Positions 3,293 to 47,460 of a stretch of DNA of 64,000 nucleotides are shown one piece after another. Made by a program: the position numbers and the translations under genes. The stretch covers positions 1-64,000 of the forward strand of contig CBDCYI010000004.1 of the NCBI GenBank assembly GCA_965224085.1, given 5' to 3'. Every line of letters begins with the position of its first letter. The stretch's first letter is position 1. The notes below the pieces were generated by a model. The model ran no database searches. It was not told the DNA's origin and saw nothing but the letters and a program-made list of their open reading frames with translations. Source of the stretch: Candidatus Marinacidobacterales bacterium. GTDB lineage: Bacteria > Acidobacteriota > Vicinamibacteria > Marinacidobacterales > SMYC01.

Positions 3293-3663
3293 CCGGCCGG
3301 TACGCGGTGAGAGCGGGAAACGACCAGCGAGCGATTCTCTCGTCAGTTCTATCAGCTCGGGGTCCTCGAGGAGCGTGTCGACGGGTTCGAGTAGATCATC
3401 CTTGATGAGCGACGCCTGTTTGGAGAAGTTGACGTAGAAGAGGGCGGACTGCCTGGTAACGGTCCCTATAACGCCTAATAAATATCATCCCTTAGGCTAC
3501 AAGTCAAGAAAAAAACGACCAAATACAAAATAGTTGGGAAAATTCTTGCGGATCGATCCAGGCGCGTTTGGCGCCGGCAAATCACAGATCTGTCAGCTGC
3601 CCGATTGGACGCGGATTGAAACCAACGGTGAAAGCGGTTACGTTTTGCAACAGGCTCTAGCTA

Positions 3664-5347
3664 GTACCCGTCCTGACAGGTGTAAGAGGTTGAGAAAAAA
3701 GGGGTAATCGCAAATTTAGGGCTAGCCTTCTGAGGGAGTGTCGTTTAGTATCGAGTCGACAAAAACGCAGATTCTAAACGACTTAACTCCAAAGGAGACC
3801 AGCCCTAAATGCGAAAAACGATCAACCCACAACCAAGCCTTCGCGAGCCCTGGCTGGAGCTGGAGCACGCACGCGAGCTCGAAACGATATCATCGCTGCT
3901 CGATGCCCATCCTAAGCTCAATGAGCTGGTACTGCAAGACCTGAGGTCGGTCACCCCATCGGCAGGGAGCGATGTTGGTCGTGGGGGAATGAGCGCGGAG
4001 CAGGTTCTCCGGGCGTTGTTGGTCAAGCAGCTGAATCAGTTCACCTATCGGGAGCTGGCGTTTCACTTGGCAGACTCTCGAAGCTATCGGACGTTTTGCC
4101 AGCTCGGCATCATAGAGCCGAGCCCGTCGAAGTCGACCCTAGCAGCAAACATCAAAGCCGTGAAGTTCGAAACGCTGGAGAAAATCAACCGAGAGTTGGT
4201 GAGTGTTGCCGAGAAGACCGCGATCGAAAAAGGAAGAAAAGTACGAGTGGACTGCACGGTAGTGGAGTCGAATATTCATTCTCCTACGGACTCCGAGCTT
4301 CTTTATGACTGCGTCCGAGTTCTCACTCGCCTCATGTGCCGAACTCGCGAACTGCTGGGTACAGTAGTGGTCTTCGGCAATCGAACGCGTCGAGCGAAGA
4401 GACGTCGACTGGGAGTTCTAAACGCGAAGGATAAGGAACAAAGGCGTCGCGTCTATCGAGATCTACTGAAGGTGTCGGAAGAAACCTATCGCTCCGCTCA
4501 ACGCGTTGCAGACCAGTTGGACGAGTCCGGCTTGACCGAGCCGGTGAAGCGAGCGAGTGCGGAGAAGATCGCCGCGGATTTTAAGCACTTTCTCGTCCTC
4601 ACCGAAAAAGTCATCAACCAAACTCGGCGTAGAGTGATTGATGAAGAGCGTGTGCCTGCGGAGGAAAAGGTCGTTTCGATCTTCGAAGAACACACCGACA
4701 TTATTCGCAAAGACCGGCGCGAGACTCTCTACGGTCACAAGGTGTGTTTGACTGGTGGCTCGTCCTCGATGATTTTGGATTGCGTGATCTTGGATGGGAA
4801 TCCGTCCGATTCAACTCTCGCGGAAACCATGATCGACCGTCAAGTCGAACTCTACGAACGGGCCCCGCGCCAGGTTGCCTACGATGGCGCGTTTTCTTCA
4901 AAGGCAAACTTGGAAGCCATCAAAGGCAAGGGAGTTGAAGATGTTGCCTTTACCAAGGCTCACTTCGCGGTGACCGATATGGTCAAGAGTTCCTGGGTCT
5001 ATCAACGCCTACGGCGATTTCGCTGCGGAATCGAAGGCGTCATTTCGTTCTTGAAACGAGTCTTTGGTCTCGACCGATGCACATGGCGCTCATTGCCTTC
5101 TTTCAAATCCTACGTATGGAGTTCCATCATCACCTGCAACCTGTTGGTAATGGCAAGGCACCTATTACGATAATAATGATTGCTCTTACTGCGTTTATAG
5201 CCATGGATTGCTGACGATTCGCCTCTCGTTTCGTCCAAGATTTTCATTCGCTTCCGAGCCTACGAGGTGCCGACTGAAAACGTATAATACCCACATCTTC
5301 GATAGGCCTCTCGTACACCACAAGTTATGGTGTTTCTGGACAGGAAC
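3664..5347 (+). mobile_element. IS copy 2 (1684 bp)
   Basis: Ends GTACCCGTCC...GGACAGGAAC; TAGCTA on both sides. Confidence 0.95.
3809..5173 (+). CDS. DDE transposase, 454 aa
   Basis: Same protein as 120..1484. Confidence 0.9.
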   Translation: MRKTINPQPSLREPWLELEHARELETISSLLDAHPKLNELVLQDLRSVTPSAGSDVGRGGMSAEQVLRALLVKQLNQFTYRELAFHLADSRSYRTFCQLGIIEPSPSKSTLAANIKAVKFETLEKINRELVSVAEKTAIEKGRKVRVDCTVVESNIHSPTDSELLYDCVRVLTRLMCRTRELLGTVVVFGNRTRRAKRRRLGVLNAKDKEQRRRVYRDLLKVSEETYRSAQRVADQLDESGLTEPVKRASAEKIAADFKHFLVLTEKVINQTRRRVIDEERVPAEEKVVSIFEEHTDIIRKDRRETLYGHKVCLTGGSSSMILDCVILDGNPSDSTLAETMIDRQVELYERAPRQVAYDGAFSSKANLEAIKGKGVEDVAFTKAHFAVTDMVKSSWVYQRLRRFRCGIEGVISFLKRVFGLDRCTWRSLPSFKSYVWSSIITCNLLVMARHLLR

Positions 5348-5353
5348 TAGCTA

Positions 5354-7037
5354 GTACCCGTCCTGGCGGACGTAAGAGGTTGAGAAAAAGGGAGTAATCG
5401 CAAATTTAGGGCTAGTCTTCTGAGGGGTTGTCGCTTAGAATCGAAGTCGTCAAAAACAAGAGTCTAAACGACTTAACTCCAAAGGAGACCAGCCCTAAAT
5501 GCGAAAAACAATCATTCCACAACCAAGCCTATGCGAGCCCTGGCTGGAGGTGGAGCACGCGCGCGAGCTCGAAGCGATCTCGTCGGTGCTCGATGCCCAT
5601 CCTAAGCTCAATGAGTTGGTACTGCAAGACCTGAGGTCGGTCACCCCATCGGCAGGGAGCGATGTTGGTCGTGGGGGAATGAGCGCGGAGCAGGTTCTCC
5701 GGGCGTTGTTGGTCAAGCAGCTGAATCAGTTCACCTATCGGGAGCTGGCGTTTCACTTGGCAGACTCTCGAAGCTATCGGACGTTTTGCCAGCTCGGCAT
5801 CATAGAGCCGAGCCCGTCGAAGTCGACCCTAGCAGCAAACATCAAAGCCGTGAAGTTCGAAACGCTGGAGAAAATCAACCGAGAGTTGGTGAGTGTTGCC
5901 GAGAAGACCGCGATCGAAAAAGGAAGAAAAGTACGAGTGGACTGCACGGTAGTGGAGTCGAATATTCATTCTCCTACGGACTCCGAGCTTCTTTATGACT
6001 GCGTCCGAGTTCTCACTCGCCTCATGTGCCGAACTCGCGAACTGCTGGGTACAGTAGTGGTCTTCGGCAATCGAACGCGTCGAGCGAAGAGACGTCGACT
6101 GGGAGTTCTAAACGCGAAGGATAAGGAACAAAGGCGTCGCGTCTATCGAGATCTACTGAAGGTGTCGGAAGAAACCTATCGCTCCGCTCAACGCGTTGCA
6201 GACCAGTTGGACGAGTCCGGCTTGACCGAGCCGGTGAAGCGAGCGAGTGCGGAGAAGATCGCCGCGGATTTTAAGCACTTTCTCGTCCTCACCGAAAAAG
6301 TCATCAACCAAACTCGGCGTAGAGTGATTGATGAAGAGCGTGTGCCTGCGGAGGAAAAGGTCGTTTCGATCTTCGAAGAACACACCGACATTATTCGCAA
6401 AGACCGGCGCGAGACTCTCTACGGTCACAAGGTGTGTTTGACTGGTGGCTCGTCCTCGATGATTTTGGATTGCGTGATCTTGGATGGGAATCCGTCCGAT
6501 TCAACTCTCGCGGAAACCATGATCGACCGTCAAGTCGAACTCTACGAACGGGCCCCGCGCCAGGTTGCCTACGATGGCGCGTTTTCTTCAAAGGCAAACT
6601 TGGAAGCCATCAAAGGCAAGGGAGTTGAAGATGTTGCCTTTACCAAGGCTCACTTCGCGGTGACCGATATGGTCAAGAGTTCCTGGGTCTATCAACGCCT
6701 ACGGCGATTTCGCTGCGGAATCGAAGGCGTCATTTCGTTCTTGAAACGAGTCTTTGGTCTCGACCGATGCACATGGCGCTCATTGCCTTCTTTCAAATCC
6801 TACGTATGGAGTTCCATCATCACCTGCAACCTGTTGGTAATGGCAAGGCACCTATTACGATAATAATGATTGCTCTTACTGCGTTTATAGCCATGGATTG
6901 CTGACGATTCGCCTCTCGTTTCGTCCAAGATTTTCATTCGCTTCCGAGCCTACGAGGTGCCGACTGAAAACGTATAATACCCACACCTTCGATAGGCCTC
7001 TCGTACACCACAAGTTATGGTGTTTCTGGACAGGAAC
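5354..7037 (+). mobile_element. IS copy 3 (1684 bp), in tandem with copy 2
   Basis: Same ends; TAGCTA at 5348-5353 and 7038-7043; variant 5' end. Confidence 0.95.
5499..6863 (+). CDS. DDE transposase, 454 aa (variant N-terminus MRKTIIPQPSLCEP)
   Basis: Near-identical to copy 2. Confidence 0.9.
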   Translation: MRKTIIPQPSLCEPWLEVEHARELEAISSVLDAHPKLNELVLQDLRSVTPSAGSDVGRGGMSAEQVLRALLVKQLNQFTYRELAFHLADSRSYRTFCQLGIIEPSPSKSTLAANIKAVKFETLEKINRELVSVAEKTAIEKGRKVRVDCTVVESNIHSPTDSELLYDCVRVLTRLMCRTRELLGTVVVFGNRTRRAKRRRLGVLNAKDKEQRRRVYRDLLKVSEETYRSAQRVADQLDESGLTEPVKRASAEKIAADFKHFLVLTEKVINQTRRRVIDEERVPAEEKVVSIFEEHTDIIRKDRRETLYGHKVCLTGGSSSMILDCVILDGNPSDSTLAETMIDRQVELYERAPRQVAYDGAFSSKANLEAIKGKGVEDVAFTKAHFAVTDMVKSSWVYQRLRRFRCGIEGVISFLKRVFGLDRCTWRSLPSFKSYVWSSIITCNLLVMARHLLR

Positions 7038-25905: not shown

Positions 25906-26684
25906 TCCCGACTGCGATAGCCGGAAAGATGTTCCCGTCGACGAACGTTCGCCGATGAGACGTAACGCCTTTTATAACAATGAGTAACGGACGGAGCCGC
26001 ATTCGCCCTTCTTTTCCAGATGGGACCAGCGCGGCCTCTGGAGGGTTTACGACACGGCCCTTCTTTCAGGCGTTCGAATTCGTTTTATGTTCGTATTTTT
26101 TGGAGCGCACGCCGCCAAACTCCTGGGGGATACTGTAAAGACTGTAAAAATTGCCCCTCTCGTGTCCATCATCTGCGAAGGGTACAGTTCGACCTGGACC
26201 GGCATTCAATCGTCGAGCACCAGCCATTTTAGATAACGCCGAACGTCCCCGCCGAGGTCGAGTCACTTCTTTGTTTTAGGGTTTCCAGCCGAGACCGGAT
26301 AGCTCCAACCTGCACCATCCGCCACCCAGTCTGGCCAATTGTGGCACTGCAGAGACGGGTGGGATTTTCCGCGCGGTTGGCGGGGTTTTGCAGGATCAGG
26401 TGTCACCAGAGACGCGCTAGAAGGGCTGAACTGGCCTCATTTTCGGTTTTGGTCTCTAATCTCGATTTTCGAGTGCCACGTTTGCGCCAAATAGGGGAGC
26501 GGGCTCTGAGGGGCTCAGAATCGAGGCTGAGGTTACCGCGGCGTAGCTGGCCTAGCACGTTCTGGTCCAGGTGCGGCCCGGGCCTGGATCCAGGTCTCGC
26601 CCGGGAGCGTGGCATCCCGTTGCTGGACGGTGTTTTCCCTGCGCGTGCGGAGAGCCCGAATCGCCGACATCGCCTCCGACACGC

Positions 26685-27133
26685 GAATCAGTCCATAAGG
26701 GCCTCGGTGAAATGCAGACCCTGGCAAGCGGCGTGGGCGACCTGAAAAGAGTCATGAGCAACGTCAAGGCGCGCGGCACATGGGGTGAAGTCCAACTCGG
26801 CGCAATTCTTGCGCAGTTCCTCGCTCCGGGTCAGTATGAAAAGAATGTTCGTCCCGCACCCGACTCAACCGAGACCGTCGAATACGCCGTGCGCCTGCCA
26901 GGCCCGCAGGACGATCCAACCTCCTGTGTCTGGCTTCCCATCGACTCCAAGTTCCCGCAGGAAGACTATCTGCGCTTACAGGATGCTGCAGAAGCGGCCG
27001 ACGCCGATGCAACGCTTAGAGCCATAGACGCACTCTCGCGTACGGTCAGAGCGGCGGCGAAGGCCATCAACGAGAAGTACTTGAAACCACCAGCCACGAC
27101 CGACTTTGGGATCATGTTCCTTGCCACTGAAGG
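26685..27133 (+). pseudogene. rmuC: RmuC internal fragment
   Basis: VHKGLGEMQTLASGVGDLKRV.SNVKARGTWGEVQL...WLPIDSKFPQEDY...TTDFGIMFLATEG. Confidence 0.85.
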
Positions 27134-27610
27134 CGCAGGCTCGATGCCATGTTCTCGCAGAATATTGGCGATGGTGCTCCTGGCTACCGTATGGCCGTCC
27201 GAGCTGTTTCCGCCGCACGCTGTAGTCCCACTTCCGCGCGATGAGCCTTCGGTGCCAAGCCAGAAGAGTTTCCGGTGTGACGATACTGGCGACTTCTGCC
27301 AAGAGTTTCCGGCCAAGCGCCTTACCCTTTACCGCGAGCCGACGTCGCTCGTCGTCTGTGAGGCGAAGCTTCCTCCCGCAGAGCCGAGCTTTGAGGACTC
27401 TGTTCTCCTTGAGTAAGTAGACGATAGCGGCCTGTTGGTCACGCTGGACCCAACCAGCGACGGCAACCATCAACAGTGTCAAGGGCTGGATCGGCGTCCT
27501 CATGATCGAGTATTCTAGCTCCCATCGGCCAACCAAGCGTATACACGTCTATTCCGAAACGTCCCGGCGTGCCGATCTTGAGTTCGTTTGTATTTTTGGA
27601 CACGACGAGG
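27133..27610 (-). pseudogene. Integrase-core (rve) type transposase, N-terminal fragment
   Basis: YLLKENRVLK...RLTDDERRRLA...IVTPETLLAWHRRLIARKWDYS...TIANILREHGIEPAP; internal deletion. Confidence 0.75.
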
Positions 27611-27642: not shown

Positions 27643-27831
27643 CCCTAATCGCAAAATCTTCGAAGCACGAAAACGCGAAACAGCCGCACTGGGCGCAGGC
27701 GAGAAGCTCGTGCTGGGGCACCCGCTCGCCGCCACTATAGGTGATTCTGCACGGTGTATGCAGAACCTGGAAAAGGTGCTATTCACGGGGCCAAAGACCT
27801 CAGACACGGTGACGTTTATTTGCGATTAGGG
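27643..27831. mobile_element. 189-bp MITE with TTAA flanks
   Basis: IRs CCCTAATCGCAAA / TTTGCGATTAGGG; TTAA on both sides; inverted copy at 36756-36944. Confidence 0.85.
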
Positions 27832-27893
27832 TTAACCTGTCCACGAAAGCGGGGTCACTTCAATCTTCTTTTTTGCGGATCACAACTGTCAAG

Positions 27894-28110
27894 TTTTCCA
27901 CGGCCTGACGGCCACCCCGAATGAATGAAACGCGGTAGTCTGTGAAGGTGGCACCGGCTCAGAGGTCGGCTTAACGTTGGTGCGACTGAGCCCGTTGTCA
28001 AGTTTGGCTGGGAGTCCTGCGCGTACCCCAAATTGCGTTTTCTATTCCAGCTGGGATAGTTGAGCGCGTCTATTAGATTACAAGTTCGTGGGCTCCACGC
28101 CGGTGCGACG
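27894..28110 (+). ncRNA. Putative bridge-RNA region of IS110 element A
   Basis: ~215-bp non-coding leader containing TGTCAAGTTT (27996-28005), identical to the flank/left-junction sequence, and TATTAG resembling the right end. Confidence 0.5.
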
Positions 28111-29363
28111 TGAAGGAGGCTGCGATGAGAGTGGTTCATAAGCGATGCGCCGGATTGGACGTCCACCAGAAATCGATTACGGCTTGCGTGCGGGTAGCGA
28201 CGAAGCGGAAGGTGGTGCGCGAGACGCGTGTGTTCGGCACGGCCACGAGCGAATTGCTGGAAATGTTGGATTGGCTGGGGCAGTGCGGTTGCACGATTGT
28301 AGCGATGGAAGCGACCGGAGTGTATTGGAAGCCGGTGTGGCATGTGCTCGAAGGTCATTTTGAGTTGGTGTTGGCACAACCGGCCCACGTCAAGAACATG
28401 CCGGGTCGTAAGAGCGATATCAGTGATGCCTTGTGGATAGCGGATTTGCTTGCCCATGGTCTCATTCGAGCTAGCTTCGTTCCGCCAACGCCGATCCAGG
28501 AACTGCGAGAGCTGACCCGAACGCGAAAGCAGTTCGTTCGAGAAATCGCTCGGGAGACCCAGCGAATTCAAAAGACGTTGGAAGACGCGAACATCAAATT
28601 GACGAGCGTGATTAGCACGATTTTGGGAGTAAGCGGGCGGGCGATTCTCCGAGCGATCATTGCGGGAGAAAGCGACCCTCACAAGCTGAGTGAGCTGGGC
28701 TCAAGCCGACTCAAAGCCACTGAACAGGAATTGAGCGCAGCGCTCGAGGGCTACGTTACCGACCATCATCGTTTCCTGTTGGGTTTTCATCTCAATCATA
28801 TCGAGCAGCTTGAAGCCTCAGTGAGCGCGCTCGAATCCCGTATCACAGAGAGCCTGCGCCCTTTTCGATCGGCCGTCGAGCTTCTGGTGACGATCCCGGG
28901 CATCAGTGAAGCCACGGCGGCCATTCTCGTCGCCGAGATCGGACCCGATGTCTCGGCATTCCCAACGGCCGGACACCTTCGCTCTTGGGCCGGTCTATGC
29001 CCACGGCTTCATGAGAGTGCCGGTAAACGCTTTTCTCAGAAAACCCGCAAAGGGGCTCCATGGCTCAAGACCGCTCTTGTCCAAGCCGCTTGGGCGGCAA
29101 GCCGCAAGCGCGACAGCTATCTGCGTGCCCAGTTCTTCCGGCTCAAATCTCGTCGGGGCCCCAAGAAAGCTGTCGTCGCCGTCGCCGCCTCCATCATCAC
29201 CGCCGTCTACTACATGCTCCACAATGAGATTCCATACCGGGAACTGGGTGCCGATTACTTCCATCAACGCGACAAGGAACAGCTCACAATACGAATGACA
29301 CGACGCCTAAGGGAGCTCGGTTTTGACGTCACTCTCACACCTCTTGCCAACGCTACACCCTGA
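28110..29363 (+). CDS. IS110 family DEDD recombinase
   Basis: AGLDVH, AMEATGVYW, RKSDISDA, TIPGI, WAGLCP...ESAGK motifs. Confidence 0.95.
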   Translation: MKEAAMRVVHKRCAGLDVHQKSITACVRVATKRKVVRETRVFGTATSELLEMLDWLGQCGCTIVAMEATGVYWKPVWHVLEGHFELVLAQPAHVKNMPGRKSDISDALWIADLLAHGLIRASFVPPTPIQELRELTRTRKQFVREIARETQRIQKTLEDANIKLTSVISTILGVSGRAILRAIIAGESDPHKLSELGSSRLKATEQELSAALEGYVTDHHRFLLGFHLNHIEQLEASVSALESRITESLRPFRSAVELLVTIPGISEATAAILVAEIGPDVSAFPTAGHLRSWAGLCPRLHESAGKRFSQKTRKGAPWLKTALVQAAWAASRKRDSYLRAQFFRLKSRRGPKKAVVAVAASIITAVYYMLHNEIPYRELGADYFHQRDKEQLTIRMTRRLRELGFDVTLTPLANATP

Positions 29364-29375
29364 GTTTCTTATTAG

Positions 29376-29514
29376 TTTTCCAACGGCCTGACGGCCACCC
29401 CGAATGAATGAAACGCGGTAGTCTCTGGAGGTGGCACCGGCTCAACACGACGCCTGAGGGAGCTCGGTTTTGACGTCACTGCCCCCAAACGCTACACCCT
29501 GAGTTTCTTATTAG
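29376..29514 (+). mobile_element. 139-bp non-autonomous mini-IS110 A, in tandem with its parent
   Basis: First ~72 bp of the left end fused to the last codons and right end (ACCCTGAGTTTCTTATTAG). Confidence 0.85.
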
Positions 29515-29632
29515 TTGATGAAAAAACTAGCAGACCGACCCCCAAGATACTGGGCTCAAGCCCGTGGTGAACCCACCATGCTGCGCATCAGAAACGGCCG
29601 TCAGCCTCAACTTGACGATGCCGGTAAAAAGG

Positions 29633-30268
29633 CTAGGGCGCGGTGGGCAGCAACGCCCAGCCAATGCACCGCTCAGCATCATCAAGCAAACTTGCCGCGA
29701 CGGGGTCCTCAAGCAGTGGTACTCCAAGCCTGACCAGACAACAGGGCAAGTCCAGCTCCGCCGGTAGCTCCGCCGCCAACCAGCGCACGCCCTTCGCTGC
29801 GCCCCCGACCGTCCAGGCCGTCACGCAACGAACCATGACTCGGCGCTCGGTTCCCTCAATGAGCCAGCCCACGGCGCCGATCCAGGTGTTCCTGATGCTT
29901 AGAAAGTATTCGGTGAATCCGGGCAACGGCACCACATGGCCGCTGGTGGCCACCTTGATAATGGGCCGCAACGCGGCCAGCGTCTCGGGGCGAACATCCG
30001 AGCGTGGCATCTGGGCCATGTGGCCCGTCGATAGGTGGTAGTGGTGTATCACCCCGTCGGCGAAACAACGCCCAAGGGTAGCAACCCGTTCGCCAACATC
30101 TCCCTCGCCCGTTAGCACCTCCGGTCGGATTGGTGGGGGCTCCGCAACCTGCAATGCTTTGGTTTTCGTCGGCTTCCCAGTGTTCGCCTTTGCCCGATCC
30201 TTTGCTCGCTTTTTACGTATAGCTTCCCGGGCAAATCGCCGATATGCATCCGGAGATCGGTAGAACAT
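29633..30268 (-). CDS. Hypothetical protein, paralog of 36120..36701
   Basis: Shared GEGDVGERVATL...YFLSIRNTW...CVTAWT...LDLPCCLV...DDAERCI block. Confidence 0.65.
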   Translation of the reverse strand: MFYRSPDAYRRFAREAIRKKRAKDRAKANTGKPTKTKALQVAEPPPIRPEVLTGEGDVGERVATLGRCFADGVIHHYHLSTGHMAQMPRSDVRPETLAALRPIIKVATSGHVVPLPGFTEYFLSIRNTWIGAVGWLIEGTERRVMVRCVTAWTVGGAAKGVRWLAAELPAELDLPCCLVRLGVPLLEDPVAASLLDDAERCIGWALLPTAP

Positions 30269-30406: not shown

Positions 30407-30992
30407 TGAGCGGGTGCGCTCCATCGCCTAAAGGCGATGGGTTCGCGGGCGACTAAAGTCGCCTAAAGGCGCACGGCGGAGGATTACTCGCTTACCCTGA
30501 ACGACTCGTCGTCTTCCGGCAGCTCTCCTTGCAGCTCGATGTACTTGGCCACAACCTCATCGGTCACGTTTCCGCTCGTCGCTACAAAATAGCCGCGCGC
30601 CCACAGGTGCCGACCCCAAAACTTCTTGCGGATCGCTCGAAAATCACGCATCAGCTTGTGCGATGTCTTCCCCTTGATCGCCTGCATTACTCGGCTCGGC
30701 GACAGCCGTGGCGGCACGCTCAGCAACAGATGAACGTGCTCTGGCCGTACATGGCCCTTCAGTATTTCTATGTGGTGCGTCGCACAGATCTCTCTTATCA
30801 ACTCCCGCAGGCGAAGTGCTACATCTCCTCTCAATACCGGCTTGCGGTACTTCGGGATGAATACGAAATGGTAGTTTAATTGATACGTCGTGTGCGATGA
30901 TTTCCGATATCCTTTCATCCGGGGATCGTACCGCAAGCCTCCTAAAGGCTTCGCCTGAAGGCGAGGGGTTTCAACCATCCCCGAGTGAGACA
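30407..30992 (-). mobile_element. IS200-like element (tnpA only)
   Basis: Subterminal hairpins CCATCGCCTAAAGGCGATGG (30421-30440) and TCGCCTGAAGGCGA (30951-30964); boundaries approximate. Confidence 0.8.
30484..30918 (-). CDS. tnpA: IS200/IS605 Y1 transposase
   Basis: YHFVFIPKYRKPVL, EHVHLL (HUH), LWARGYF, KYIELQ. Confidence 0.95.
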   Translation of the reverse strand: MKGYRKSSHTTYQLNYHFVFIPKYRKPVLRGDVALRLRELIREICATHHIEILKGHVRPEHVHLLLSVPPRLSPSRVMQAIKGKTSHKLMRDFRAIRKKFWGRHLWARGYFVATSGNVTDEVVAKYIELQGELPEDDESFRVSE

Positions 30993-32479
30993 CTCAGGGT
31001 GTAGCGTTGGCAAGAGGTGTGAGAGTGACGTCAAAACCGAGCTCCCTTAGGCGTCGTGTCATTCGTATTGTGAGCTGTTCCTTGTCGCGTTGATGGAAGT
31101 AATCGGCACCCAGTTCCCGGTATGGAATCTCATTGTGGAGCATGTAGTAGACGGCGGTGATGATGGAGGCGGCGACGGCGACGACAGCTTTCTTGGAGCC
31201 CCGACGAGATTTGAGCCGGAAGAACTGGGCACGCAGATAGCTGTCGCGCTTGCGGCTTGCCGCCCAAGCGGCTTGCCGCCCAAGCGGCTTGGACAAGAGC
31301 GGTCTTGAGCCATGGAGCCCCTTTGCGGGTTTTCTGAGAAAAGCGTTTACCGGCACTCTCATGAAGCCGTGGGCATAGACCGGCCCAAGAGCGAAGGTGT
31401 CCGGCCGTTGGGAATGCCGAGACATCGGGTCCGATCTCGGCGACGAGAATGGCCGCCGTGGCTTCACTGATGCCCGGGATCGTCACCAGAAGCTCGATGG
31501 CCGATCGAAAAGGGCGCAGGCTCTCTGTGATACGGGATTCGAGCGCGCTCACTGAGGCTTCAAGCTGCTCGATATGATTGAGATGAAAACCCAACAGGAA
31601 ACGATGATGGTCGGTAACGTAGCCCTCGAGCGCTGCGCTCAATTCCTGTTCAGTGGCTTTGAGTCGGCTCGAGCCCAGCTCACTCAGCTTGTGAGGGTCG
31701 CTTTCTCCTGCAATGATCGCTCGGAGAATCGCCCGCCCGCTTACTCCCAAAATCGTGCTAATCACGCTCGTCAATTTGATGTTCGCGTCTTCCAACGTCT
31801 TTTGAATTCGCTGGGTCTCCCGAGCGATTTCTCGAACGAACTGCTTTCGCGTTCGGGTCAGCTCTCGCAGTTCCCGGATCGGCGTTGGCGGAACGAAGCT
31901 AGCTCGAATGAGACCATGGGCAAGCAAATCCGCTATCCACAAGGCATCACTGATATCGCTCTTACGACCCGGCATGTTCTTGACGTGGGCCGGTTGTGCC
32001 AACACCAACTCAAAATGACCTTCGAGCACATGCCACACCGGCTTCCAATACACTCCGGTCGCTTCCATCGCTACAATCGTGCAACCGCACTGCCCCAGCC
32101 AATCCAACATTTCCAGCAATTCGCTCGTGGCCGTGCCGAACACACGCGTCTCGCGCACCACCTTCCGCTTCGACGCTACCCGCACGCAAGCCGTAATCGA
32201 TTTCTGGTGGACGTCCAATCCGGCGCATCGCTTATGAACCACTCTCATCGCAGCCTCCTTCACGTCGCACCGGCGTGGAGCCCACGAACTTGTAATCTAA
32301 TAGACGCGCTCAACTATCCCAGCTGGAATAGAAAACGCAATTTGGGGTACGCGCAGGACTCCCAGCCAAACTTGACAACGGGCTCAGTCGCACCAACGTT
32401 AAGCCGACCTCTGAGCCGGTGCCACCTTCACAGACTACCGCGTTTCATTTATTCGGGGTGACCGCCAGGCCGTGGAAAA
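30993..32479 (-). mobile_element. IS110 element A, copy 2; transposase frameshifted, right end replaced by IS200
   Basis: Inverted near-identical copy; 16-bp tandem duplication GCGGCTTGCCGCCCAA at about 31252-31283. Confidence 0.88.
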
Positions 32480-35487: not shown

Positions 35488-36078
35488 ATGAAAGACAATA
35501 GAATGATTGCCGAGTTGATATCGGAGTTTGTAGCACAGTTGGAGAAGCAGCTGCATGAGCTAAATTCACGAATTACTACTGTTCTTGCTGAGCCGGAGGC
35601 TTCTGAACCGGAGGCTGCCGAGCCAGAGGCTGCCGAGCCAGAGGCTTCTGAGCCAGAGGCTGCTGAGCCGGAGGCTGCTGAACCGGAGGCTGCCGAGCCA
35701 GAGGCTTCTGAGCCAGAGGCTGCTGAGCCGGAGGCTGCTGAACCGGAGGCTTCTGAGCCAGAGGTTGCTGAGCCAGAGGCTGCTGAGCCGGAGGCTGCTG
35801 AGCCGGAGGCTGCTGAGCCGGAGGCTGCTGAGCCGGAGACTTCTGAGCCGGAGGCTGCTGAGCCGGAGGCTGCTGAGCCGGAGGCTGCTGAGCCGGAGGC
35901 TGCTGAGCCGGAGGCTGCTGAGCCGGAGACTTCTGAGCCGGAGGCTGCTGAGCCGGAGACTTCTGAGCCGGAGGCTGCTGAGCCGGAGGCTGCTGAGCCG
36001 GAGACTTCTGAGCCAGAGACTTCTGAGCCAGAGGTAGACGATGGCGATTCGCAATCCCAGGAAGACCGCGCAAAGTAA
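35488..36078 (+). CDS. Short helical leader plus about 30 EPE(A/T/V)(A/S) pentapeptide repeats
   Basis: GGAGG RBS; 15-bp tandem repeats; C-terminus [15 protein letters not shown] identical to the bactofilin tail. Confidence 0.7.
35590..36035 (+). repeat. 15-bp coding tandem repeat (GAGCCRGAGGCTGCT)n
   Basis: Directly visible; about 30 units. Confidence 0.95.
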
Positions 36079-36119
36079 TGGACGGCAATAGAACTGAGAC
36101 AGGGGATAGGCGTTAGTGC

Positions 36120-36701
36120 ATGAAACCTGTGATCCGCAAAAAAGAAGATCGCGTGCCGCCTGGATCGACTTTTTGCGGAGCACAGGAGGTGCCAACGGGC
36201 GAGGGAGATGTTGGCGAACGGGTTGCTACCCTTGAACAGTCCTTCGCCAGCGAGTCGATGATGCACCACTACAACCTATCGACGCGCCACGTGTTCCAGA
36301 CGCGACGCTCGGATATTCGCTCCGAGACGTTGGCTGCGTTGCAGTCCAACATCGAGGTGGCCACCAGCGGGCAAGCGGTGCCGTTACCCGGATTCCCCGA
36401 ATACTTTCTAAGCATCAGGAACACCTGGGTCGGCGCAGTGGGGTGGCTCATCCAGGGACCCGAGCACCGGGTCATGGTTCAGTGCGTGACAGCCTGGACG
36501 ATTGAGGGCGCAGCAAAGGGCGTGCGCTGGTTGGGGGCGGAGCTACCGGAGGAGTTGGACTTGCCTTGTTGTCTGGTCAAGCTTGGACTACCCCTGCTTA
36601 AGGATCCCGGTGCGGCAAGTTGGCTTGATGATGCCGAGCGGTGCATTAGCTGGGCGATGCTACCCACGCCTCCTCTTGGCAATGGCACAGGGTCGCCCTG
36701 A
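36120..36701 (+). pseudogene. Hypothetical protein, paralog of 29633..30268; 5' end replaced by a MITE
   Basis: Homology starts at about 36185, directly after the short MITE at 36128-36184. Confidence 0.6.
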
Positions 36702-37189: not shown

Positions 37190-37900
37190 TGAGGGAATGT
37201 GTGCCACTCTTAGTTGAAATTTGAAACGGCTCCCTCTCGGGTGGTTTGATGACGTTGTCAAAAGCGAAATCAAGCCGCTCAAGAAAGGAGCCGATATGGG
37301 AAGTCTGCTACGAAGGGTCAAGGAACGCAAGAAGACGCGTCGTCTAGGTGAAGTAGAGGTCATGGAGCAAGAGGGATACGGGGAGCTCGAGGTGGACTCG
37401 AAGGTCGAGATGATCCGCGCACTGGTGCCTCTCGGCCTGATGCATGTTCACGAGTTGCTGGACGCCGAGGTCAGTGAGCTTGCGGGAGAGCGATACGTTC
37501 GGAAATCGGAGACGGTGCAGGGACGACGTCACGGGACGAATCCGGGCACGGTGAACTCGCGGGTCAGCGAGTTCCGGTCCGCGGTCCCCGTGTTCGCGGC
37601 CGCGACGGAGAGATCCCGTTGAACTCGTACGAGAGTCTGAGTCACCGCGGAGAGGTGGACGAGTTGCTTCTACGAAGAGTGCTGTACGGGATCTCGTGCC
37701 GGAACTATGAGTCGGCGGCGGAATTGGTTCCGGGCGCGATCGGTCTGTCGAGTTCGTCGGTGTCGCGCGGCTTCGTCGAAGCAAGCGCAGCGAAGCTGCG
37801 TGAGATGCAGGAGCGTGATCTCTCGGGTGAGGACGTGGTGGCGATGGTCCTGTACGGCAAGACGTTCGCCGACGCGACGATGGTGGTGGCTCTCGGCGGT
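37190..37900 (+). pseudogene. IS256-like transposase 5' fragment, frameshifted
   Basis: LLDAEVSELAGERY, GISCRNYE, SSSSVSRGF, ERDLS...DGK-like region; truncated by a mini-IS110. Confidence 0.65.
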
Positions 37901-37909
37901 ACTGTCAAG

Positions 37910-38018
37910 TTTTCCACGGCTTGACGGCCACCCCGAATGAATGAAACGCGTTAGTCTCTGGAGGTGGCACCGGCTCAACACGACGCCTGAGGGAGCTCGG
38001 GTTTGGCGTCACTGCCCC
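37910..38018 (+). mobile_element. Mini-IS110 A, copy 2 (right end truncated)
   Basis: Same internal deletion junction (GGCTCAACACGACGCC) as 29376-29514; preceded by TGTCAAG. Confidence 0.8.
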
Positions 38019-38073
38019 AGAGGTGTGATGAGCTCGTTGCCGAGACCTTGGTGGTTCCGTTCTGCGTGATAGT

Positions 38074-38550
38074 GCTCGGCAACACAGTGCCCACAATCGC
38101 GAGTTTCTTGAACTCCACTATCCTTGGCATCCGCTCCACGGACGTAGGATTCTCGTCCGCGGCCGGCGAAAGTGGGGCAAGCACACAGCCGTTCGCTTCA
38201 CGGTAGAAGACGAACCGCAACGAGTCTGGACCGAACTTCCGGTCTGGATGTTTGACCGTGCCGTCTGTTCACGGATGCGTTTGACTGGCCGACCCCGCGT
38301 TCATTGGAAAGCCTTGGTAGAACTTAGGCAACTGCTGGACGAGACGGTGTGTGCGCCTCCGTTGGCAAGGGTACAAGATCAGCATCGTTGTTCGAACGTA
38401 GAAGGAGGTGCTGATGAAGGCGATACATCGATTTCGTCGAGCGGAGCAACTTCGGTTTTTCGATCGAAACAGAGTTCTCCCCCTGTGGAGCAGTCTTGCG
38501 GAAGACGTCAGGCAAGCGGTAACTCGATTGACGGCGGAGATGCTCCGTGA
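38074..38550 (+). CDS. orfA, lacking a start codon in the integrated state (YPWHPLHG...ELPVWMFD protein)
   Basis: Frame open from the left junction to the stop at 38550; no ATG/GTG/TTG before 38248; in frame with ATG 40784 after circularisation. Confidence 0.65.
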   Translation, partial: ARQHSAHNREFLELHYPWHPLHGRRILVRGRRKWGKHTAVRFTVEDEPQRVWTELPVWMFDRAVCSRMRLTGRPRVHWKALVELRQLLDETVCAPPLARVQDQHRCSNVEGGADEGDTSISSSGATSVFRSKQSSPPVEQSCGRRQASGNSIDGGDAP

Positions 38551-41125: not shown

Positions 41126-41219
41126 TGGCGATTTCGATAAGCTGTTGATTTATCGGCTATTTCAAGAGGGCCGAGTTTTGGCACAGGACTGGGTTCAAAC
41201 TGCAACACGACCTGGCACC

Positions 41220-43022: not shown

Positions 43023-43737
43023 AGTGATTGATGAAGAGCGTGTGCCTGCGGAGGAAAAGGTCGTTTCGATCTTCGAAGAACACACCGACATTATTCGCAA
43101 AGACCGGCGCGAGACTCTCTACGGTCACAAGGTGTGTTTGACTGGTGGCTCGTCCTCGATGATTTTGGATTGCGTGATCTTGGATGGGAATCCGTCCGAT
43201 TCAACTCTCGCGGAAACCATGATCGACCGTCAAGTCGAACTCTACGAACGGGCCCCGCGCCAGGTTGCCTACGATGGCGCGTTTTCTTCAAAGGCAAACT
43301 TGGAAGCCATCAAAGGCAAGGGAGTTGAAGATGTTGCCTTTACCAAGGCTCACTTCGCGGTGACCGATATGGTCAAGAGTTCCTGGGTCTATCAACGCCT
43401 ACGGCGATTTCGCTGCGGAATCGAAGGCGTCATTTCGTTCTTGAAACGAGTCTTTGGTCTCGACCGATGCACATGGCGCTCATTGCCTTCTTTCAAATCC
43501 TACGTATGGAGTTCCATCATCACCTGCAACCTGTTGGTAATGGCAAGGCACCTATTACGATAATAATGATTACTCTTACTGCGTTTATAGCCATGGATTG
43601 CTGACGATTCGCCTCTCGTTTCGTCCAAGATTTTCATTCGCTTCCGAGCCTACGAGGTGCCGACTGAAAACGTATAATACCCACATCTTCGATAGGCCTC
43701 TCGTACACCACAAGTTATGGTGTTTCTGGACAGGAAC
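43023..43737 (+). mobile_element. IS copy 4, 5'-truncated
   Basis: Identical to the 3' part of the 1684-bp element; followed by TAGTTA. Confidence 0.9.
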
Positions 43738-43743
43738 TAGTTA

Positions 43744-45427
43744 GTACCCGTCCTGGCGGACGTAAGAGGTTGAGAAAAAGGGAGTAATCGCAAATTTAGG
43801 GCTAGTCTTCTGAGGGGTTGTCGCTTAGAATCGAAGTCGTCAAAAACAAGAGTCTAAACGACTTAACTCCAAAGGAGACCAGCCCTAAATGCGAAAAACA
43901 ATCATTCCACAACCAAGCCTATGCGAGCCCTGGCTGGAGCTGGAGCACGCACGCGAACTCGAAGCGATCTCGTCGGTGCTCGATGCCCATCCTAAGCTCA
44001 ATGAGCTGGTACTGCAAGACCTGAGGTCGGTCACCCCATCGGCAGGGAGCGATGTTGGTCGTGGGGGAATGAGCGCGGAGCAGGTTCTCCGGGCGTTGTT
44101 GGTCAAGCAGCTGAATCAGTTCACCTATCGGGAGCTGGCGTTTCACTTGGCAGACTCTCGAAGCTATCGGACGTTTTGCCAGTTCGGCATCATAGAGCCG
44201 AGCCCGTCGAAGTCGACCCTAGCAGCAAACATCAAAGCCGTGAAGTTCGAAACGCTGGAGAAAATCAACCGAGAGTTGGTGAGTGTTGCCGAGAAGACCG
44301 CGATCGAAAAAGGAAGAAAAGTACGAGTGGACTGCACGGTAGTGGAGTCGAATATTCATTCTCCTACGGACTCCGAGCTTCTTTATGACTGCGTCCGAGT
44401 TCTCACTCGCCTCATGTGCCGAACTCGCGAACTGCTGGGTACAGTAGTGGTCTTCGGCAATCGAACGCGTCGAGCGAAGAGACGTCGACTGGGAGTTCTA
44501 AACGCGAAGGATAAGGAACAAAGGCGTCGCGTCTATCGAGATCTACTGAAGGTGTCGGAAGAAACCTATCGCTCCGCTCAACGCGTTGCAGACCAGTTGG
44601 ACGAGTCCGGCTTGACCGAGCCGGTGAAGCGAGCGAGTGCGGAGAAGATCGCCGCGGATTTTAAGCACTTTCTCGTCCTCACCGAAAAAGTCATCAACCA
44701 AACTCGGCGTAGAGTGATTGATGAAGAGCGTGTGCCTGCGGAGGAAAAGGTCGTTTCGATCTTCGAAGAACACACCGACATTATTCGCAAAGACCGGCGC
44801 GAGACTCTCTACGGTCACAAGGTGTGTTTGACTGGTGGCTCGTCCTCGATGATTTTGGATTGCGTGATCTTGGATGGGAATCCGTCCGATTCAACTCTCG
44901 CGGAAACCATGATCGACCGTCAAGTCGAACTCTACGAACGGGCCCCGCGCCAGGTTGCCTACGATGGCGCGTTTTCTTCAAAGGCAAACTTGGAAGCCAT
45001 CAAAGGCAAGGGAGTTGAAGATGTTGCCTTTACCAAGGCTCACTTCGCGGTGACCGATATGGTCAAGAGTTCCTGGGTCTATCAACGCCTACGGCGATTT
45101 CGCTGCGGAATCGAAGGCGTCATTTCGTTCTTGAAACGAGTCTTTGGTCTCGACCGATGCACATGGCGCTCATTGCCTTCTTTCAAATCCTACGTATGGA
45201 GTTCCATCATCACCTGCAACCTGTTGGTAATGGCAAGGCACCTATTACGATAATAATGATTACTCTTACTGCGTTTATAGCCATGGATTGCTGACGATTC
45301 GCCTCTCGTTTCGTCCAAGATTTTCATTCGCTTCCGAGCCTACGAGGTGCCGACTGAAAACGTATAATACCCACATCTTCGATAGGCCTCTCGTACACCA
45401 CAAGTTATGGTGTTTCTGGACAGGAAC
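43744..45427 (+). mobile_element. IS copy 5 (1684 bp)
   Basis: TAGTTA on both sides. Confidence 0.95.
43889..45253 (+). CDS. DDE transposase, 454 aa
   Basis: Near-identical to the other copies. Confidence 0.9.
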   Translation: MRKTIIPQPSLCEPWLELEHARELEAISSVLDAHPKLNELVLQDLRSVTPSAGSDVGRGGMSAEQVLRALLVKQLNQFTYRELAFHLADSRSYRTFCQFGIIEPSPSKSTLAANIKAVKFETLEKINRELVSVAEKTAIEKGRKVRVDCTVVESNIHSPTDSELLYDCVRVLTRLMCRTRELLGTVVVFGNRTRRAKRRRLGVLNAKDKEQRRRVYRDLLKVSEETYRSAQRVADQLDESGLTEPVKRASAEKIAADFKHFLVLTEKVINQTRRRVIDEERVPAEEKVVSIFEEHTDIIRKDRRETLYGHKVCLTGGSSSMILDCVILDGNPSDSTLAETMIDRQVELYERAPRQVAYDGAFSSKANLEAIKGKGVEDVAFTKAHFAVTDMVKSSWVYQRLRRFRCGIEGVISFLKRVFGLDRCTWRSLPSFKSYVWSSIITCNLLVMARHLLR

Positions 45428-46650: not shown

Positions 46651-46740
46651 AGCCCAATGTATGAGAAGCTGAGTAGAAACCCTTGCCCGAGGCAAAACGG
46701 TTTCGTGCATCATCCCCTGCCTCAGATCTATTGTACTCCA

Positions 46741-47460
46741 TTACTTTGCGCGGTCTTCCTGAGATTGCGAATCGCCATCGTCGACCTCTGGCTCAGCAGC
46801 CTCTGGCTCAGCAGCCTCTAGCTCAGCAACCTCCGGCTCAGCAGCCTCTGGCTCAGCAGCCTCTAGCTCAGCAACCTCCGGCTCAGCAGCCTCTGGCTCA
46901 GCAGCCTCCGGCTCAGCAGCCTCTGGCTCAGCAACCTCTGGCTCAGCAGCCTCTAGCTCAGTAACCTCCGGCTCAGCAGCCTCTGGCTCAGCAGCCTCCG
47001 GCTCAGCAGCCTCTGGCTCAGCAACCTCCGGCTCAGCAGGAGCGGAGCGTTCCTCGTTGGCCGTCATTTGGATCGCCCCCTTGAAGATGGCTCCTTCGGC
47101 AACCGCGATGCGTGGGGCGCAGAGATTCCCGAACACCTTTCCTGTGAGGGTGATCTCAACTTTGTCGCTTGCCGTGCAGTCGCCCTCTAGCTTGCCACGT
47201 ATCGAGACGTTGGCCGCCTCGATCTTCGCTTTCACTCGACCGGCTTCGCCGATTACAACCATTCCGCTGCTCTTGATCTTGCCTTCCACCCGCCCTTCGA
47301 TCTGGAGCACCTCGCTGCTGTTCAACTCGCCGCTGATGATCGTTTTCGCCCCGATCAACGTTTGCGGCGCGACCGATGGTGATTCGTCCCGTGCCGGAAC
47401 ACCGTGGGGACCGGTCGCGAGGTTGAGTTTTTGCGGTTTCGATTTTCCAAACAATCCCAC
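46741..47460 (-). CDS. Bactofilin (polymer-forming cytoskeletal protein) with an acidic EPEAA-repeat tail
   Basis: [13 protein letters not shown]....[11 protein letters not shown]...[21 protein letters not shown] beta-helix; AGGAGG RBS; about 17 repeats. Confidence 0.88.

Follow-up and report, generated by a model that had tools for sequence, protein, structure and literature searches.

A 138-bp mini-IS110 with neither recombinase nor guides, probably mobilised in trans by its parent element

The 139-bp unit and its parent element

We analysed a window of 64,000 nucleotides from the genome of a Candidatus Marinacidobacterales bacterium (assembly GCA_965224085.1, contig CBDCYI010000004.1, positions 1 to 64,000). 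A full-length, autonomous IS110-family element of 1482 bp lies at 27894-29375 on the forward strand, with 100%-identical copies elsewhere in the genome. It is flanked on its left by the target and core (TGTCA plus AG, 27887-27893, forward strand) and encodes a recombinase of 412 amino acids (28125-29363, forward strand) with an N-terminal DEDD_Tnp_IS110 domain (PF01548, E 4.2e-28) and a C-terminal Transposase_20 domain (PF02371, E 1.8e-23). A short way upstream of the element is an ORF with an RmuC-family domain (26571-27413, E 7e-34). A sigma-70 consensus scan of 27800-29650 found no promoter. A second full-type copy, 98% identical, occupies 30988-32479 on the reverse strand; its ORF is recovered as two overlapping matches, and another sequence stands in place of its right-end tip.

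A mini element of 139 bp (29376-29514) abuts the 3' end of the full element with zero spacer. The sequence-only reading had recognised this left-end plus right-end unit in tandem with its parent, and that description stands; the proposed split into about 72 plus about 65 bp gives way to one of 69 plus 70 bp. The left-end-derived half (29376-29444, forward strand) consists of element positions 1-68 (27894-27961) plus one inserted A, which is private to this copy (CCAACGG), carries two substitutions relative to the element and holds the right-donor arm TTTTCC.... The right-end-derived half (29445-29514, forward strand) corresponds to the terminal 78 bp of the element (29298-29375) after a net loss of 8 bp and further substitutions, and terminates with the left-donor arm GTTTCTTATTAG. 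The deleted segment is 27962-29297, with which go TTGTCAAGTT(T) at 27995-28005 and the entire ORF at 28125-29363.

The mini retains its two donor arms, ...GTTTCTTATT-AG at the tip of the right end and TTTTCCACGG... at the start of the left end, together with about 60 bp of adjoining sequence per side. All 138 bp align to the left or the right end of the parent, leaving no small-RNA cargo gene. The ends of the unit, TTTTCCACGG and CTTATTAG, do not form inverted repeats, and microhomology at the deletion junction amounts to 0-1 nt at most. With neither terminal inverted repeats nor a target-site duplication the unit does not fit the strict definition of a MITE, and we therefore name it mini-IS110.

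A second mini lies at 37910-38018 on the forward strand behind the sequence TGTCAAG (37903-37909, forward strand). As the sequence-only reading had noted, it has the same junction, substitutions and left flank; its right side is truncated, however, with the last ~29 bp including the right-end tip missing, and this copy is a dead fragment. A placement of this copy inside a transposase gene was considered and dropped, the neighbouring ORFs having no Pfam family; ORFs 37221-37619, 37978-38220, 29636-30268 and 37619-37921 all lacked a match in the Pfam search. Comparison of the copies indicates that the shared substitutions of the minis stem from a sister IS variant and not from change after the deletion. 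Two left-end fragments, L007 (G021:C2:1451224-1451383) and G000:C5:2175389-2175500, carry mini-type substitutions (CTCTGGAGG) yet run on into the bridge RNA; these are relics of the sister variant that gave rise to the mini.

The bridge RNA and guides of the parent

We assembled 80 homologous elements (53-65% protein identity, several phyla) whose left ends align well. Single-sequence folds were no better than those of shuffled sequences (left end z -0.26, mini z +1.05), and comparative data were therefore used. A consensus fold of 37 homologous left ends contains 27 pairs, 19 of them with compensatory changes, and predicts a bridge RNA at about 27951-28106 (forward strand) whose outer stem pairs 27951-27958 with 28099-28106. 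An Rfam search of 27700-29700 with E up to 10 returned no bridge-RNA family; two matches, to a human lncRNA model and a snoRNA model, were rejected as chance.

Two blocks of the predicted RNA vary among elements amid conserved surroundings. The left target guide TGTCAAGTT (27996-28004, forward strand) equals the left target, the core AG and the first 2 nt of the element. Among 62 homologues, the corresponding 9-mer matches the element's own left junction exactly in 34 cases and with one mismatch in 14 (48/62 within one), whereas 9-mers from other elements give 1 exact match in 3688. The matching junction is found 103-129 nt upstream, where it immediately precedes the conserved start of the left end, and the two bases that follow the core in the guide track the first two bases of the element. 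The left donor guide TCTATTAG (28069-28076, forward strand) pairs with the right-end tip CTTATTAG. For this block 27 of 63 homologues match their own right tip (GTTTC-NNNNN-TAG, just past the stop codon) exactly and 57 within one mismatch, compared with 1.3% and 13.6%, respectively, for blocks taken from other elements; in the window element itself the match covers 6/8 positions. The covariation of left target and left donor is partly circular, the junctions having been located by the guide; independent support comes from the conserved position of the blocks, the neighbouring motifs and the permutation controls. In their behaviour the two blocks correspond to the guides for the left target and the left donor of IS621 (PMC11208160). 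When 31 homologues were scanned for covariation, no column of the bridge RNA followed the right flank; the right donor is too conserved among homologues for such a scan.

Both guides fall within the deleted 27962-29297. The mini has no ORF and keeps only ~11 nt of the predicted bridge RNA, its first nucleotides. Three statements of the sequence-only reading hold on this evidence: that the deletion removes the match at 27996, that this match acts as a guide, and that the mini lacks both the recombinase and the guide.

Two side observations concern the homologues. L100, on a Luteitalea sp. MAG contig from another phylum, is a 57%-identical IS110 element with the same guide block TGTCAAGTT and the same TGTCAAG flank. 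In four IS110 homologues from other phyla (L031, L059, L065 and L078) the left flank is the right-end tip (GTTTC...TAG) of another copy; they are either head-to-tail tandems or assembled circle junctions, and tandems are therefore common in this lineage.

Copies, targets and empty sites

To enumerate the minis in the window's own genome (G000, 6.87 Mb) we used blastn with the full element and the mini as queries, together with a search for a 30-nt string across the deletion junction (up to 2 mismatches; control, the reversed pattern). The junction occurs in 15 copies and the control in 0. Eleven of the 15 are complete at 138/139 bp. Two longer copies, of 146 bp (complete) and 142 bp, have the junction without the 8-bp loss and are therefore intermediates. 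The remaining two are damaged, namely the copy at 37910 and a degenerate copy in a mini plus mini tandem (C4:496114-496375). The same genome holds seven full copies with an uninterrupted 412-aa recombinase frame and three broken ones, and nine copies carry the guide.

The sequence-only reading had named two outcomes that would speak against mobility, namely long flanking homology between minis, as left by segmental duplication, and random flanks. No pair of mini loci in G000 is homologous on both flanks, and the single flanks that are shared belong to other repeats. Likewise, the flanks are anything but random: TGTCAAG precedes 12 of the 13 minis with a left flank of their own (the thirteenth has CGTCAAG), the full copies bear the same heptamer, and in other genomes it precedes 15 of the 16 minis with their own left junction.

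An IS6-family element of ~805 bp, which has ~29 near-full copies in the genome (e.g. G000:C4:1576275-1577082) and none complete inside the window, has received many of the full and mini insertions, 12 bp in from its end GGTATTGTCAAGTTGACG.... Both the IS110 element and the mini use this end more often than any other natural target, and related ends of other insertion sequences also serve as targets. As seen at two single-copy chromosomal sites, the TGTCAAG heptamer alone can suffice.

Several other repeats border these elements or lie in the window. Four right ends (G000:C9:27010, C9:777609, C4:496113 and C5:718783) are followed by the same multi-copy sequence TGTCTCTTCCGGGGATGGTCGAAACC..., present in 35-38 genome copies. 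In many genomes the IS110 left end gives way after ~26 nt to the end of another repeat (GTCCTGTGCCAAAACTC...), as in G000:C5:2175389-2175540 and L019/L020 of G012, with 26-27-nt matches in G002, G003, G010, G012, G016 and G021. This pattern reflects either a recurrent insertion point in the left end or a composite end; the GTCCTGTGCCAAAACTC repeat also occurs in the window as family D15 (e.g. 41138-41202). Repeats of at least 300 nt recur at 1690-bp spacing at 3650-6622 and 43023-45012, a pattern that suggests another element arranged head to tail; they were not hit by tblastn with the IS110 protein. Long arrays with a 15-bp period at 35511-36124 and 46740-47099 may be coding repeats.

The two minis in single-copy DNA, at C5:47217-47354 and C9:751920-752065, can be compared with their empty sites. 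The C5 site is empty in the sister species G002, G003 and G004, which read uninterrupted through ...CTATCTTTGTCAAG|TCAAGGGTTTGC..., and the C9 site is empty in G001, G002 and G004 (...GCCTGTCAAG|T(T/A)CCTATTCG...), with contiguous flank matches in G003. At both loci the breakpoint falls exactly at TGTCAAG|next base. The empty ...TGTCAAG|TCAAGG becomes ...TGTCAAG[TTTTCC...TTATTAG]TCAAGG when filled; only AG is found on both sides of the insertion, and there is therefore no target duplication.

The C5 locus is also polymorphic in public data, for which contigs were the material. Contigs from 4/4 public runs examined (3 studies) skip exactly 138 bp (498 to 637). Three of the four have at least 127 nt on each side with zero differences from the flanks, and the fourth (X9) falls short of the 31-letter criterion on one side, where it has only 27 nt. 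Among the 32 public-run pieces listed for this locus, none spans from the unique flank into the mini. As the empty allele occurs in near-identical genomes, the insertion at C5 (or a precise loss) is very recent. Exact scans of metagenome contigs with the 30-nt and then a 20-nt junction string gave no match.

These data bear on two explanations that do without transposition of the mini. If the unit were not mobile, its copies would be products of general recombination or of segmental duplication. Both flanks are indeed shared by one pair in G012 (L019/L020), and a few copies share flanks between genomes; the lack of any such pair in G000 and the precise empty sites refute this explanation for G000, and overall we give it next to no credence. 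Alternatively, separate full insertions may each have suffered the same internal deletion in place or been converted by another mini, which would fit the target motif common to minis and full copies. That account is very hard to reconcile with a junction identical in all 15 copies and in five other genomes, an 8-bp loss also common to most copies, microhomology of no more than 0-1 nt, and an alternative allele at the polymorphic locus that is an empty site and not a full copy; we rate it as most improbable.

We extended the comparison to 30 related genomes in addition to G000, of which 19 including G000 form the family subset. The mini has matches at E <=0.001 in 8/31 genomes, and outside G000 there are complete copies in two genomes of the same genus (G002, G003) and in two of other genera (G010, G012). 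The junction is present in 6 of the 19 family genomes including G000 (5/18 of the others), with 15, 6, 5, 3, 2 and 1 copies and 0 for the reversed control. The 25 complete minis from five genomes are 93.5-100% identical (mean 97.7%), and the consensus is unchanged in seven copies from three genera. Orthologous chromosomal flanks among mini-bearing genomes are only 85-92% identical, and the minis have therefore moved between lineages or been recently active. Some minis have flanks shared across genomes, L019/L020 on both sides, so that not all copies are independent events. The common junction, the high identity and the long intermediates together argue for a single origin followed by spread.

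A search for the parent with the window recombinase as query (E <=1e-50) found no intact copy in four of these relatives, with nothing in G002 and fragments only in G003, G010 and G012; a copy in G016 lacks residues 1-63. By this query the minis of those four genomes (1 to 6 complete copies each) are orphans or were transferred. These minis are concentrated in short stretches rich in repeats; in G012, for instance, four lie within 45 kb.

Minis in genomes devoid of a parent would be accounted for by a different helper, such as a second IS110-family element (33-35% identical protein, about 10 copies). G010, which has no intact parent, holds 10 copies of a recombinase 35% identical to it. In G000 the second element (33% protein identity; C4:833141-834755 and ~9 other copies) carries TTGACAGCA at the target-guide position, a block that corresponds to the element's own left junction (...CTTGACA|GCAATGG). 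The target of the second element is therefore the complementary strand of the IS6-family terminal repeat also used by the first, 7 nt away. Against this helper, its left end (starting GCAATGGCATCG) and its guide TTGACAGCA are unlike the arms and flank of the mini, whereas the minis follow TGTCAAG, the match to the guide of the first element. We regard a helper of this kind as highly unlikely. The first element often abuts the second (...GCCATTGC|TGTCAAG).

Trans-mobilisation and comparison with known systems

We consider it probable that the unit is a 138-bp non-autonomous IS110 deletion derivative mobilised in trans by the recombinase and bridge RNA of its parent. Judged from sequence comparison, it appears to be a small mobile DNA parasite that borrows its enzyme and guide RNA from full-length copies. 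In a single ancestral deletion, element position 68 would have been fused to the sequence that starts 78 bp before the right end, with loss of the recombinase gene and, except for ~11 nt, of the bridge RNA, both guides included. Full-length copies in the same cell would then supply recombinase and RNA: the donor loop of the parent's bridge RNA would recognise the ends of the mini, and the target loop (TGTCAAGTT) would place it after TGTCA-AG with only the AG core shared and no target duplication. Since the mini has no part of known function beyond its donor arms, its insertions obey the parent's target guide and seven intact parents are present, we infer excision and insertion in trans by the parent's protein and RNA. 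Both steps have counterparts in reports on other systems: in IS621 a bridge RNA provided in trans acts on a 22-bp donor (PMC11208160), and for excision, recognition of the donor arms alone is reported to be sufficient (10.64898/2026.08.31.748434). The private 1-nt insertion in the right-donor arm of the window mini may make this copy less mobile.

The main rival is that the mini hitch-hikes in a head-to-tail composite of a full copy and a mini, about 1.6 kb long. Subsequent loss of the full copy, by recombination of the left junction with the right-end/left-end junction inside the composite, would leave a solo mini with correct flanks. No 138-bp circle would be required, and tandems do exist, as full plus mini in the window, as mini plus mini at C4:496114-496375, and in G010 as truncated full plus mini and as mini plus mini. 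Frequent tandem units beside IS110 genes have also been reported in a preprint, as far as its accessible text goes (10.64898/2026.08.14.744561). Yet 13 of the 15 minis in G000 are solo and only one is beside a full copy, a precise cut-out of the full copy would be needed at every site, and a half-match preprint argues, in its accessible part, that excision leaves the donor site mostly intact. We judge this route unlikely, and it would still need the enzyme and RNA of the parent.

With its neighbours, the target guide (TTGTCAAGTTT, 27995-28005) matches the occupied left junction at 11/11 positions and the empty site TTGTCAAGTTG at 10/11. Occupied sites therefore stay targets, and the tandems seen in G010, at C4:496114-496375 and in the window would have arisen in this way.

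A double-stranded circle of 138 bp would be strongly strained, and the usual intermediate may therefore not apply. Should the mini transpose alone, its rise to 15 copies in G000 at so short a length would tentatively provide natural evidence for an IS110 route through a single-stranded circle or by copy-and-paste, and for the absence of a strong preference of the complex for the copy that encodes it. On the same doubtful footing, orphan minis in genomes devoid of a parent would lie dormant as landing units, ready for reactivation by any parent that arrives. A single-stranded-circle or copy-and-paste route has been proposed for IS621 in a 2026 preprint.

If the minis move in trans, they represent a natural case of a bridge-recombinase enzyme and its guide RNA acting on DNA that encodes neither, and would support trans action in the native host. 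The natural smallness of the mini makes it a test substrate for distinguishing single- from double-stranded intermediates. For annotation, short IS110 end-to-end units are easily taken for debris or tandem noise. More generally, guided elements can accumulate in tandem, and the ends of other insertion sequences can serve as their targets.

Classical MITEs, the short, non-coding deletion derivatives of DDE insertion sequences, occur in multiple copies and retain the ends of an autonomous partner. The mini resembles them in each of these respects but has no terminal inverted repeats or target duplication, and its target is set by an RNA that it lacks. Within the same superfamily, Partridge and Hall reportedly found in 2003 that IS4321 and IS5075 (IS1111 group) target the terminal repeats of Tn21-family transposons. 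The present element likewise has the terminal repeat of a different mobile element as its natural target; here the repeat is that of an IS6-family element, and a mini derivative uses it as well.

As in IS621, according to the accessible text on that element (PMC11208160), the donor would need only the sequence around the core, and guide and enzyme can come from elsewhere. The IS621 work used an engineered plasmid insertion assay in E. coli, whereas here a natural element appears to complete its cycle in its own host; moreover, the present recombinase belongs to a different lineage, and the core is AG rather than the CT of IS621. The sequence-only reading had called the mini a natural minimal donor, which overstates the case, as a 22-bp donor suffices for IS621. 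The mini would set an upper bound only, 68 plus 70 bp in cis being enough for a whole transposition cycle.

A 2026 preprint describes tandem non-coding units beside IS110 genes and, in its accessible part, elements of ~800 bp without the upstream region (10.64898/2026.08.14.744561); its lineage filter of 95% of the transposase gene excludes units like the mini. Our literature search found no natural non-autonomous IS110-type element besides MITEPpu9; small derivatives of IS110 may be listed in supplementary files. In Pseudomonas putida KT2440, the small element MITEPpu9 has at its borders sequences like the ends of the IS110-family element ISPpu9; MITEPpu9 carries the Ssr9 small-RNA gene and has been proposed to move with the transposase in trans (PMC12288879). 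From what that report describes, the two share the lack of a transposase, the presence of several copies and the occurrence of some copies directly downstream of the IS and some alone, and ISPpu9, like the present element, has AG at both sides. MITEPpu9 is the closest published precedent; the mini, which belongs to the same recently recognised kind, is a plain, cargo-free deletion derivative. Whereas MITEPpu9 carries Ssr9 as cargo and 5/8 of its copies lie behind the IS, the mini consists of left end plus right end only and 13/15 of its copies are solo; relative to the accessible account of MITEPpu9, the present case adds a mapped absence of the guide RNA, documented empty sites and a distribution over six species.
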